DNA of 60,435 nucleotides from an uncultured virus (IMG/VR IMGVR_UViG_3300030103_005599) (taxonomy: Duplodnaviria > Heunggongvirae > Uroviricota > Caudoviricetes), in the IMG/VR virus record IMGVR_UViG_3300030103_005599; one strand, 5' to 3'. Of this stretch, positions 2,938 to 20,746 are shown piece after piece; position 1 is the first letter of the stretch; the number at the start of each line of letters is the position of its first letter. The notes under the pieces are model-generated. The model saw only the letters and a list, made by a program, of their open reading frames with translations. It did not search any database and had not been told where the DNA came from. Both the position numbers and the translations under genes were made by a program.

Positions 2938-3171
2938 ATGGATATCATGATGAAAATAAAAGGATGGGCAAAAGGAATTGCTGATGTCGGTGTGAGTTTA
3001 ATCGCATTAGGAATTGTTTTAGAAATCCTTTTCAATGGTCAAGGTATTCCGTTCTGGCCACAAGTTTCCGTAATTGGAAATGTACAGAGCGTACTGCAAG
3101 GGTTTTCAGATCAAGGTTTGATCGGACTAGTAGCAGTTTGGATTTTATATCATATCTACAACAGAAAATAA
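2938..3171 (+). CDS. Small membrane protein with two hydrophobic segments
   Basis: Segments VGVSLIALGIVLEILF and GLIGLVAVWILYHIY. GGAGG SD, upstream TAAATA (2886-2891) and its own terminator. Confidence 0.75.
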   Translation: MDIMMKIKGWAKGIADVGVSLIALGIVLEILFNGQGIPFWPQVSVIGNVQSVLQGFSDQGLIGLVAVWILYHIYNRK

Positions 3172-3199
3172 TATAAAAATCTAGAAATACGATAACCTC

Positions 3200-3246
3200 A
3201 AGGGTGGTGTGATTAATTTATGGATTGTATTGCACCACCCTTTTTT
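3200..3246 (+). terminator. Long-stem terminator
   Basis: AGGGTGGTGTGAT ... ATTGCACCACCCT followed by a T run. Confidence 0.75.
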
Positions 3247-3286
3247 CTTTGTACTTTATTGTTTTAAAATTTTGGTAAATACTATC

Positions 3287-3376
3287 AGTTCAAACGTGCT
3301 TTGACACAAAGTCAAAGACTTATGCGGAAACAAACCGCGTACCCAGGAGAACTGGGATTGGACTCCTAAATAGGAG
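3287..3376 (+). ncRNA. Candidate structured cis-regulatory RNA leader (four-way junction plus SD-sequestering hairpin)
   Basis: Closing stem AGTTCAA/TTGGACT encloses three hairpins: CTTTGAC/GTCAAAG, TATGCGG/CCGCGTA and CCCAG/CTGGG. It is followed by CTCCT/AGGAG over the SD. It begins just after TAAATA at 3276-3281. Confidence 0.55.
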
Positions 3377-3383
3377 AAAACAA

Positions 3384-3815
3384 ATGGGAAGACCTATCAA
3401 GAAAAGTAACTTCACATCTGAAGGATCACCGGACGGAATTGCAGGAAGAATTGAAGTATCTGCATATTTTCCAACTGGCGGTTCTCTTCAGCAAAATGAT
3501 AACTCGTTTATCATCTCGCAAAGAGGATCTAAACAGTTCAAGATCCAACAAATGAACGACTCATCAGTTGCTACATACACGTTGGTTGCTAAAGCACCAG
3601 CAGAATTATCAGCAGGTGAGATGTGTGTGAAAGTTACAATCAGGAATACTGATTCAGGTGTACCACAGGATGCATGGGTAGAAAAGTTCTACAACAGAAC
3701 TTTACACTTTGCAGACGCTCAAGGTACAGAAACTGGTTCAGTTACATACTCACTTGGCGCAGAGGCAGGCGAAGATTCAACTGTTGCTGGTCAAGGTTCA
3801 GTAGACGTTATCTAA
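3384..3815 (+). CDS. Hypothetical protein, probably virion-associated
   Basis: AGGAG SD, late-type promoter and own terminator; located in the structural region. Confidence 0.7.
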   Translation: MGRPIKKSNFTSEGSPDGIAGRIEVSAYFPTGGSLQQNDNSFIISQRGSKQFKIQQMNDSSVATYTLVAKAPAELSAGEMCVKVTIRNTDSGVPQDAWVEKFYNRTLHFADAQGTETGSVTYSLGAEAGEDSTVAGQGSVDVI

Positions 3816-3831
3816 TAACGCACACGTGCTT

Positions 3832-3860
3832 AAAGGGGGAGTTTTTACACTTCCCCTTTT
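3832..3860 (+). terminator. Rho-independent terminator
   Basis: AAAGGGGGAGT ... ACTTCCCCTTTT stem. Confidence 0.7.
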
Positions 3861-3863
3861 CTT

Positions 3864-3871
3864 TATAAATA
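3864..3871 (+). promoter_or_regulatory. T4-type late promoter TATAAATA
   Basis: Exact T4 late consensus 7 nt before ATG 3879; no SD. Confidence 0.75.
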
Positions 3872-3878
3872 CTAGCAA

Positions 3879-5138
3879 ATGGCAAAAACAGTACGAACAT
3901 CAGGTGATTACACAATAAAAGCAGGTGATGGTTACAACGCAGGATCCGGTACAAATACGATAAATCTTGACAGTTTAAACGTCAGCATCACTGGTAATTT
4001 AACAGTTGGTGGTACTTCGTCAACAATCAGTACAACAAACACAGTTATCGAAGATAACATCATCGAATTACAAACAGGAATTTCAGCAAGTTCCAATGAT
4101 GCAGGAATCATCATCGAAAGAGGATCAACAGGTGACAACGCCGCAATAGTCTGGGACGAATCTGCTGACACATTCAAATTAGGAACAACAACTGCCACAG
4201 GTGCAGACAAATCAGGTGGCATCACTGTCACAGCAGGTGCATTGGAAGTTGGTGCCTTGACAGCAACGACAGGAACGTTCAGTGGTGCACTTACAAGTGT
4301 AGGTTTCACTGTTGAAGGAAACCTAACAGCAGGACAAGTTACTACAAACGAGATTACAGCCAATGGTTCGAACGCGGCCTTAACAGTTGCATCTTCAGGT
4401 ACAGGAGATGTAACAATAGATTCGGGTGGTGACCTAATAGTAGACGTTGACAATGCTGATCTAATATTAAAAGATGACGGCACAGAATTTGGTAGACTCA
4501 GCAGAGTGACGGCAGACTTTGTTATCAAGTCATCGGCACAAGACCAAGATCTTATTTTCAAAGGCAATGACGGCGGTAACACTGTAACTGCATTGACATT
4601 CGACATGAGCGAGGGCGGCGAAGCAATTTTTGGTGCAGGCATCACTGCAAACAGTTTAACAACAAATACTATAACATCAAATGGATCAAATGCAGAATTA
4701 TCTTTACAAGCAAGTGGTACAGGTGATGTTGTTATTAGTGCATTAAGAGTAAATGGTACAACATTAGATTCAGCAGATTCCACAAAAATTACAGTGGCAG
4801 AAGATGTAGATGTCACAGGTACTTTATTCTCTCGAGGAAATGTTTATGGTGTGCAAACGCTGACTGGCTCAGGTAGCACAGAGGTCATAAATTTGACAGA
4901 CACTGTCACACTACTAGTTACAACAGGATCCAACCAGCAATTTTCGTTGGCAGATGGTGTGGAAGGACAACTTAAAATAATTTCAATGAAGACAGACGCT
5001 GGCGATGGAATAGTCACTCCTGCAAACTTTGTGAACGGAACCAACATAACATTCAATGATGTAGAGGACACCGTAACAATGCTTTATCAATCAACTGGTT
5101 GGGTATTATTGGCACGTCAAAATGCTGTTGTAGGATAA
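3879..5138 (+). CDS. Tail fibre-like virion structural protein
   Basis: Gly/Ser/Thr-rich beta-repeat composition. Shares the IEDNIIEL...DAGIIIERG...WDESAD module with the 7258 gene. Confidence 0.7.
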   Translation: MAKTVRTSGDYTIKAGDGYNAGSGTNTINLDSLNVSITGNLTVGGTSSTISTTNTVIEDNIIELQTGISASSNDAGIIIERGSTGDNAAIVWDESADTFKLGTTTATGADKSGGITVTAGALEVGALTATTGTFSGALTSVGFTVEGNLTAGQVTTNEITANGSNAALTVASSGTGDVTIDSGGDLIVDVDNADLILKDDGTEFGRLSRVTADFVIKSSAQDQDLIFKGNDGGNTVTALTFDMSEGGEAIFGAGITANSLTTNTITSNGSNAELSLQASGTGDVVISALRVNGTTLDSADSTKITVAEDVDVTGTLFSRGNVYGVQTLTGSGSTEVINLTDTVTLLVTTGSNQQFSLADGVEGQLKIISMKTDAGDGIVTPANFVNGTNITFNDVEDTVTMLYQSTGWVLLARQNAVVG

Positions 5139-20125: not shown

Positions 20126-20746
20126 ATGGCAATATCAACTTTATCAAAATTTACAGTACCTTTAGCAAACGATCAAAGTTCAGCATCACAAGGCTTATTG
20201 ATGCCAAAACTACAATATCGTTTTAGAGCAATACTGGAAAATTTTGGAGTATCAACACCAAGATCAGAACTAACAAAACAAGTTATCGACATAACAAGAC
20301 CTAACTTGACTTTTGACAACGTTACATTAGATGTTTACAACTCTAAAGTATATGTTGCAGGTAAACACACTTGGGATCCAATTACAATTACATTGAGAGA
20401 TGACGTGAACAACTCAGTAACTAAACTAGTTGGTGAGCAGATCCAGAAACAGTTTGACTTCTTCGAACAGTCAAGTGCGGCATCTGGTATTGACTACAAA
20501 TTCACAACAAGAATTGAAATGTTAGATGGTGGTAACGGAGCAAGTGCACCAAATGTATTAGAAACATTTGAATTATACGGTGCATATGTTGAAAACGTAA
20601 ACTACAACACACTAGCATACGCAACTTCAGATCCAGCAACAATCACAATGTCAGTTAGATATGACAACGCAATCCAAACTCCGACAGGAACAGGAATTGG
20701 TACAGCAGTTGCAAGAACTATCGGTACGTTAAGTACAGGTGGTTAA
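20126..20746 (+). CDS. Tail tube protein (gp19-like)
   Basis: Follows the sheath gene; PKLQYRFR, AGKHTWDPITITLRDD and RYDNA motifs. Confidence 0.85.
   Translation: MAISTLSKFTVPLANDQSSASQGLLMPKLQYRFRAILENFGVSTPRSELTKQVIDITRPNLTFDNVTLDVYNSKVYVAGKHTWDPITITLRDDVNNSVTKLVGEQIQKQFDFFEQSSAASGIDYKFTTRIEMLDGGNGASAPNVLETFELYGAYVENVNYNTLAYATSDPATITMSVRYDNAIQTPTGTGIGTAVARTIGTLSTGG

Follow-up and report, generated by a model that had tools for sequence, protein, structure and literature searches.

Introduction

The translational operators of bacteriophage T4 include the leader of gene 32, the RegA sites and the hairpin of gene 43. Structures of another kind are found at the T4 late genes soc and e, where the Shine-Dalgarno sequence (SD) is masked by a hairpin only in the longer early transcripts. 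The late promoters of T4-type phages are characterised by a TATAAATA-like box located about 6 nt before the start of the transcript. In translational ON riboswitches, such as the adenine-sensing add, the 3' strand of the closing helix (P1) overlaps the anti-SD.

Here we have analysed a structured RNA leader in a stretch of 60,435 nucleotides of DNA from an uncultured virus (IMG/VR record IMGVR_UViG_3300030103_005599), called the window from here on; all features of the window are on the + strand. Gene content identifies the window as part of a T4-type myophage. It contains a gp21-type prohead protease, a gp23-type major capsid protein, tail sheath, tail tube, head closure and large terminase genes, and, among the replication and recombination genes, a gp32-type SSB, UvsX, UvsY and the gp41- and gp61-type helicase and primase. 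Comparison of the capsid protein with its counterparts in gp23-type jumbo phages gives 68-72% identity.

We think that the leader may work like the translational operators of T4. In both cases a T4-type phage has a structured or sequence-specific RNA site beside the ribosome-binding site of one gene, but the two are likened by layout alone, and the gene in the window is late whereas the genes with operators in T4 are early or middle. With soc and e the window has in common a putative late promoter directly upstream and an SD-masking hairpin; here, however, both arms of the hairpin are downstream of the late box and the late transcript itself would be masked. The clade to which the window belongs also presents, in the same order as the translational ON riboswitches, a closing helix, an aptamer-like junction, an anti-SD and the SD, but in the window the overlap is only 2 nt, the helices are predicted to coexist, and much of the family lacks this layout. 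Rfam already contains the RNA family, and what is added here is its gene, promoter and clade context, which could be useful for assigning a function. The RNA-gene pair is compact and abundant, and this makes it a tractable case for the function of orphan phage leaders.

Identification of the RNA element

The first-pass annotation of the window, made from the sequence alone, had described the leader as a compact four-way junction with a hairpin sequestering the SD, and had stated that its novelty would be lost with a match to a described Rfam family. A scan of the whole window with the covariance models of Rfam 15 gave such a match, to RF02980 (freshwater-2, type Cis-reg), at 3300..3386, with 79.2 bits against a gathering score of 49.9 (E 1.7e-10). 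It is the sole match in the window above the gathering score and is full length (model positions 1-84 of 84, untruncated). The folded stretch is real, and it is a full-length copy of the already catalogued freshwater-2 motif.

The RF02980 model consists of three successive hairpins, which correspond to the helices P2, P3 and P4 of the first-pass annotation, followed by an unpaired tail with AAGGAG, an A-rich spacer and the AUG. Its end, AAGGAGAAAAcAAAUG, is aligned to 3371-3386, and the ORF starts at 3384. The family and the element of the window share the three hairpins, the invariant P3 and P4 loop and the presence of the SD and the AUG inside the model, and there is no essential difference between them; the 5' strand of P1 (3287-3293) falls upstream of the model. 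Neither P1 nor the SD hairpin is among the pairs of the model, in which the stretch after P4 is unpaired, though the consensus keeps 'uugga' there.

The source of the freshwater-2 motif we take to be the 224-motif survey of Weinberg et al. (2017). The main text of the survey (PMC5737381), which describes a search for RNAs of the small-molecule riboswitch kind, does not contain the word 'freshwater', and a full-text literature search on the motif name and on RF02980 returned nothing on the function of freshwater-2.

We have also scanned the loci of 15 relatives chosen for being atypical. RF02980 matched in 13 of them, nine at or above the gathering score and four at 44.9-48.6 bits, and was absent from the loci L068 and L201, both discussed below. 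No match was found in the nearest record (G001) either, a fragment only 18% complete and uninformative for the window phage. On another viral contig the freshwater-2 copy has just upstream of it, at L084:692-898 (- strand), a stretch that resembles the manA RNA motif (RF01745) but scores below the threshold (36.6 bits against 55.2, E 2.6e-6). Among approximately 185,000 species genomes the motif pattern appeared in only three contigs (L203, L204 and L205, of 3-42 kb), all from metagenome-assembled bins. Their labels, Vampirovibrionales, Pelagibacter and Legionellales, belong to unrelated lineages, and the three are probably phage contigs binned together with cellular genomes.

Fold and conservation of the core hairpins

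All the strings named in the first-pass annotation are present at the positions it gave, including the ATG at 3384, and the minimum-free-energy fold of 3276-3400 (-35.6 kcal/mol) reproduces the five helices that had been drawn. The observation is confirmed as real and well above chance, with a z-score of -5.38 and none of 200 dinucleotide shuffles as stable. The core is formed by P2 (CTTTGAC/GTCAAAG, 3299-3305 with 3311-3317; 3299..3317), P3 (TATGCGG/CCGCGTA, 3321-3327 with 3335-3341; 3321..3341), which has a variable A/C-rich loop, and P4 (CCCAG/CTGGG, 3342-3346 with 3352-3356; 3342..3356), which has the conserved loop nAGAAC. All three appear both as Rfam hairpins (1, 2 and 3) and in the fold. 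The description of the stretch as GC-rich was right with respect to the intergenic sequence before it (0.42-0.47 over 3280-3399 against 0.23-0.33 over 3120-3319), but not to the coding sequence that follows, which has about the same GC content. Its likeness to a cloverleaf without tRNA identity was also correctly recognised; ARAGORN found 0 genes in the window, and no tRNA family appeared in the Rfam scans of the window.

Covariation among the leaders of homologous genes had been suggested as a check. The alignment comprised 64 leaders of the long class described below, that is, the window and 63 of the 66 other class A leaders, leaving out two near-duplicates (L050 and L054) and an aberrant one (L122). 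Double-sided changes were found at six of the seven pairs of P2 and at all five of P4. P3 is paired in 100% of the cells, five of its seven pairs being invariant and the other two having a compensated variant. The covariation score observed (0.269) was reached by none of 500 column shuffles, and sliding of the 3' partners reduced the paired cells from 88.7% to 21-47%. The check thus came out strongly for P2 and P4 and with two compensated variants for P3, but with almost nothing for P1 and the SD hairpin. The exact sequence of the P3 stem, the P4 loop and the linker between P2 and P3 is kept in both protein clades (see below).

Several other candidate features of this region were considered, and most of them were rejected. 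An invariant AUG inside P3 opens a frame of 15 codons in the window (stop at 3368-3370), but a conserved upstream ORF is ruled out by P3 loop lengths that differ by non-multiples of three and by the loss of the stop in one leader (L002). A CsrA-type site with GGA in the loop would fit the P4 loop of the window (GGAGAAC), but most relatives have GUAGAAC or CUAGAAC. Pairing between the P3 loop and the start codon was discarded for the window, the P3 loop of the window (AAACAAA), the one loop that was checked, having no complement to AUGGGA; CCC[AG] is found in this loop in 21 of the 39 class B leaders and in none of the 50 A1, 13 A2 and 4 A3 leaders. A candidate pseudoknot could form in the window between a 5' GUUC and the GAAC of the P4 loop. 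This loop is constant among the leaders, some of which have GUC or GUCUA in place of the 5' element.

Association with one gene family

The gene that follows the leader (3384..3815) codes for a protein of 143 aa with the N-terminus MGRPIKK. The 202 loci fetched gave 111 unique 130-nt leaders of ORFs with this MGRP start. Among the 61 leaders that were found via the protein alone, 60 have the core, 57 in its strict form and three (L036, L065 and L077) as variants that are compensated or have a longer loop. Starting from the DNA pattern, 120 matches were reduced to 99 unique ones, of which 88 precede an MGRP ORF (87, plus L190 identified by eye), three precede ORFs beginning with MARP or MGRA and eight are unrelated sequence. 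The three MARP/MGRA cases (L120, L126 and L186) carry the motif at 68.5-69.9 bits; the ORFs of the first two have 186-188 aa and that of the third is cut by the end of the locus. The motif is nearly specific to the MGRP gene family.

Two loci depart from this pattern. L068 is a homologue of the MGRP gene without any freshwater-2 leader. At L068:1371-1512 there is a terminator and then a TATAAATA box, only 9 nt from the ATG, and no SD can be seen; this suggests a late message with little or no leader. In L201 a P3-like DNA pattern is located before an ORF (MKDTITMVKGW...) that resembles the 77-aa ORF of the window at 2938-3171, and it may be a chance match or a degenerate relative.

At E 0.001 or better, 446 relatives of the 143-aa protein were found. 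All of them are metagenomic, and the family diverges to about 40% identity. It belongs to no Pfam or PHROG family, a tblastn search against 50,697 records of isolated phages gave no match, and the best hit of a profile search against the PDB had an E of 0.98. No recognised RNA-binding family was found in the Pfam, PHROG and PDB profile searches, and the Protein Atlas yielded nothing usable. A structural model built from 97 sequences is all-beta, with a pLDDT of 84. Foldseek searches of the PDB with two models gave no row at E 0.001 or better. The proteins that the model does match are all uncharacterised and come from uncultured phages and Agrobacterium phage Atu_ph07 (E 1e-6 to 1e-4), with a weaker match in Yersinia phage fHe-Yen9-04 (E 3.9e-3). 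An independent structure aligner placed residues 81-143 close to small SH3/Tudor-like barrels with a Z of at most 6.0, a value reached over residues 81-141 and within the stated noise range of the tool. The matches in Atu_ph07 and the uncultured phages are to several proteins of different lengths, and the modelling suggests that the fold is a domain which large T4-like phages have put to use in several of their proteins.

A probable late transcription unit with a single gene

Upstream of the leader, an intrinsic terminator would close the preceding unit (GGGTGGTG ... CACCACCC, then a T run; 3202..3246). A simple terminator scan did not list it, and in the Rfam scan its stem and T run were aligned as the terminator-like stem in a weak CyaR row. 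It is followed by a TAAATA box (3276..3281; GGTAAATA in the window), similar to the core of a T4-type late promoter and with a putative promoter function. The box is invariant in all 64 rows of the alignment and is found upstream of P2 in 67/67 leaders of the long class and 37/39 of the short class (104/106), with a spacing of 17-18 nt to P2 in 62 of the 67 long-class leaders. GGTAAATA matches what we take to be the late-promoter consensus at six of eight positions. Late boxes are not enriched in the window (TATAAATA 3 against 4.3 expected, GTAAATAC 3 against 2.4), and all three TATAAATA are just upstream of + strand ORF starts. No late sigma factor or co-activator of the gp55/gp33 type was annotated among the 62 ORFs of the 60-kb window when compared to PHROGs.

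From the upstream terminator the order is TAAATA box, leader, strong SD, 143-aa MGRP gene and a terminator-like hairpin (3832..3859, found by the terminator scan), the next TATAAATA being located at 3864-3871. Having terminators on both sides, the gene therefore looks like a one-gene unit, and the terminator scan found none between the motif and the ORF.

Contigs from RNA libraries, in which DNA can be present as well, are identical to the window at 3299-3789 (run X1) and 3287-3446 (run X2, same sample); a second study has coverage at 3486-3752. The contig at 3299-3789 runs from the leader into the ORF. In one contig the alignment starts at 3287, the first base of P1 and the place where a T4-type late start would fall; this is no more than a weak hint, and contigs cannot show a start. 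The four runs gave no RNA contig over 2900-3286 or 3790-4100, which says nothing on transcript ends. The proposal of a structured leader acting in cis agrees with the Cis-reg type of the Rfam family, with a model that runs through the SD and the AUG and with the RNA contig joining leader and ORF.

Accessory helices and leader classes

Apart from the core, two further helices had been described. P1 pairs AGTTCAA at the predicted 5' end of the transcript (3287..3293; present in sequence, fold and alignment) with TTGGACT (3358..3364; present in sequence and fold and confined to the long class). In the fold, the SD-occluding hairpin (3363..3376) pairs the anti-SD CTCCT (3363-3367), across a loop, with the SD AGGAG (3372-3376). 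The overlap of 2 nt between the 3' strand of P1 and the anti-SD was correctly placed. The SD hairpin alone has -4.6 kcal/mol, and the probability that the SD is unpaired is 0.055 in a model of the window leader that begins at the predicted start and takes in 42 nt of the coding sequence. P1 is thermodynamically marginal, the first 7 nt of this modelled transcript being 60% unpaired with the 42 nt of coding sequence included.

In the 64 rows P1 is paired in 94.4% of the cells, with a double-sided change at one of seven pairs (in two sequences), and its central C-G pair is broken in 16 of the 64 sequences. Given the paired cells in the long class, P1 could be a real conserved closing helix. The native 5'/3' duplexes of P1 average -6.3 kcal/mol against -5.1 to -5.6 after swapping partners, a weak effect, and 13-24% of shuffled 5' strands equal the native one. 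The SD hairpin is paired in 94.7% of the cells and has double-sided changes at none of five pairs (64 rows); with the SD side fixed, such changes are not to be expected. The hairpin varies by a C to U change in 13 sequences and the loss of the last pair in 17. It speaks for the hairpin that both arms are kept with a spacing of CTCC and GGAG that ranges from 5 to 8 nt. An RNA-library contig of run X4, from a relative that is 90-95% alike, has an extra T behind 3369, in the loop of this hairpin, which fits the variation of loop length among relatives.

A cis-regulatory switch was among the roles proposed in the first-pass annotation, and it would here be built on competition of P1 with the SD hairpin. 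For the leader with an enforced core, the thermodynamic model gives -34.9 kcal/mol for 7 bp of P1 plus 3 bp of SD hairpin, -35.6 for 6 plus 4 and -35.2 for 5 plus 5; the three registers are within 0.7 kcal/mol of one another, and each of them keeps the SD paired. The two helices would coexist, sliding over their shared bases, and a bistable switch is therefore unsupported.

A way to see which parts of the leader are general is to compare its architecture throughout the gene family. Segmentation succeeded for 106 of the 111 leaders, the five failures being two without core, two without detectable P2 and one with a variant P4 loop. Class A1, to which the window belongs (50 leaders), has the 5' strand AGTTCAA and the 3' strand TTGGACTCCT; in A2 (13 leaders) these are CAGAG(C) and AGGCTCTG and in A3 (4 leaders) AGTCAA and TTTGGCTCC, one base being deleted on each side of P1. 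These form the long class, with the P1/anti-SD architecture, 67 of the 106 segmented leaders. In class B (39 leaders) an A-rich stretch and the SD come directly after P4, and there is thus neither a P1 partner nor an anti-SD. CTCC is found 3-12 nt before GGAG in 48/50 A1 and 4/4 A3 leaders, and in 0/13 A2 and 0/39 B. The predicted probability of an unpaired SD is 0.09 in A1, 0.08 in A3, 0.37 in A2 and 0.69 in B. Class B leaders begin with 10-20 unpaired nt, the probability being about 0.5 for the first 7 nt. As features of the element, the four-way junction and the SD hairpin do not stand, for the 39 class B leaders among the 106 have neither of them, and the 13 of class A2 have no anti-SD.

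In A2, CAGAG(C) is paired with (G)CTCTG in 13/13 leaders, against 1/54 of the other long-class leaders, and one of them (L026) folds with the closing helix in place and a free SD. The alternative solutions for P1 found in A2 and A3 hint at selection for closure, but the coupled change in A2 may be a single event because these leaders are alike throughout.

The maximum-likelihood tree was built with 103 proteins, leaving out three leaders with the ORF cut below 120 aa. A deep split, with support 100/99, divides it into two clades. The first contains 33 class B rows and one row labelled as A1 (the aberrant L122); the second contains 66 long-class and three class B rows, and within it A1, A2 and A3 are intermixed and resolution is poor. 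P1 and the anti-SD are accessory and limited to one clade of the downstream-gene family. With at least two leader architectures, a general mechanism cannot rest on P1 or on SD masking, the latter being a robust prediction for the sub-lineage of the window and not a property of the family.

Possible function of the leader

The picture that emerges is as follows. The transcript probably begins at or near A3287, about 6 nt downstream of the TAAATA box. It would then fold into P2, P3, whose sequence is invariant, and P4, whose loop has the conserved AGAAC, and these hairpins would run into a strong and conserved ribosome-binding site formed by AAGGAG, the A-rich spacer and the AUG of the 143-aa gene. 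We are nearly certain that the freshwater-2 copy is the 5' leader of a one-gene late message of a T4-like myophage, with its start around A3287, three hairpins and a strong ribosome-binding site. The sub-lineage of the window would add the weak closing helix P1 and the 5-bp hairpin covering the SD. Since the two coexist in the folding model, we regard it as fairly probable that their role is to lower or adjust basal translation and not to act as a switch.

A trans-acting factor, probably a protein and possibly the product of the gene itself, may recognise the core and set initiation at the adjacent SD. The core would then be the sequence-specific site of this factor, a translational operator, because the P3 stem and the P4 loop are exact while the stems of P2 and P4 covary and the protein drifts to about 40% identity; we put this part forward tentatively, with less than even confidence. 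The invariant nucleotides could instead be involved in tertiary RNA contacts or form a small-molecule pocket. The combination of a known leader RNA, accessory helices and a putative operator core is our best explanation overall, and we find it somewhat more convincing than not. A more elaborate version, unlikely in our opinion, is that in the clade of the window a factor bound to the P3/P4 core makes the weak helix P1 more or less stable, shifts in this way the boundary between P1 and the anti-SD and so tunes translation of its own late message. The factor could be the 143-aa product itself, possibly a tandem of small beta-barrels. If true, an abundant late protein of uncultured aquatic T4-like phages would be under autogenous feedback control.

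The strongest competitor of the operator reading is a passive leader, whose hairpins would only shield the 5' part of a heavily used late message from nucleases and insulate the A-rich ribosome-binding site from long-range pairing, with no factor acting in trans. In E. coli, 5'-terminal stem-loops are known to stabilise mRNA, and here about 12 nt separate the predicted 5' end from the hairpins, both SD and spacer are very strong and conserved, and in class B the SD is predicted to be mostly open (probability 0.69). A stabiliser, however, needs structure only, yet the sequence of the P3 stem, the P4 loop and the P2-P3 linker is exact across both clades; the unpaired first 10-20 nt of class B (about 0.5 for the first 7) and the homologue that does without the leader (L068) also argue against it, and we consider it doubtful. 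An ON switch, in which P1 and the SD hairpin compete for their two shared bases and a ligand or protein stabilising the four-way junction frees the SD, is quite unlikely. It would account for the overlap of 2 nt, for a layout that recalls the translational ON riboswitches and for the coupling of CAGAG(C) with (G)CTCTG in 13/13 A2 leaders, with the SD of L026 free when its closing helix is formed. The 7+3, 6+4 and 5+5 registers nevertheless differ by at most 0.7 kcal/mol with the SD paired throughout, and the pairs hardly covary (one of seven in P1, in two sequences, with C-G broken in 16/64; none of five in the SD hairpin). Native P1 duplexes are only slightly better than swapped ones (-6.3 against -5.1 to -5.6 kcal/mol) and are equalled by 13-24% of shuffles, class B has neither strand, and the A2 leaders, alike throughout, may reflect one event.

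The search for riboswitch-like RNAs described in the main text of the survey (PMC5737381) invites a comparison with small-molecule aptamers, with which the leader shares a multi-hairpin junction, highly conserved nucleotides and an SD directly downstream. An aptamer is nonetheless very unlikely, as the conserved bases are mostly in the P3 stem and the P4 hairpin loop and not in junctions, the gene regulated is a phage late gene with no metabolic link, and no expression platform is common to all the classes. The 78 nt of 3287-3364, with four helices and a 7-bp closing stem, might also be taken for a free-standing small RNA or a tRNA mimic. This is the least credible of the alternatives and highly improbable, given that ARAGORN finds nothing, that there is no terminator between motif and ORF, that the RNA-library contig is continuous over 3299-3789 and that 39 of the 106 leaders have no closing stem.

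Other late-type boxes in the window

TAAATA or TATAAATA boxes are also located 5-10 nt upstream of other + strand starts in the window, at 3864-3879 and before the starts at 20126, 23036, 25062, 26667 and 47441. The genes with such near-start boxes include the tail tube and the large terminase. If these boxes are late promoters, the messages would be nearly without leader, and some may be chance overlaps with TAA stops.
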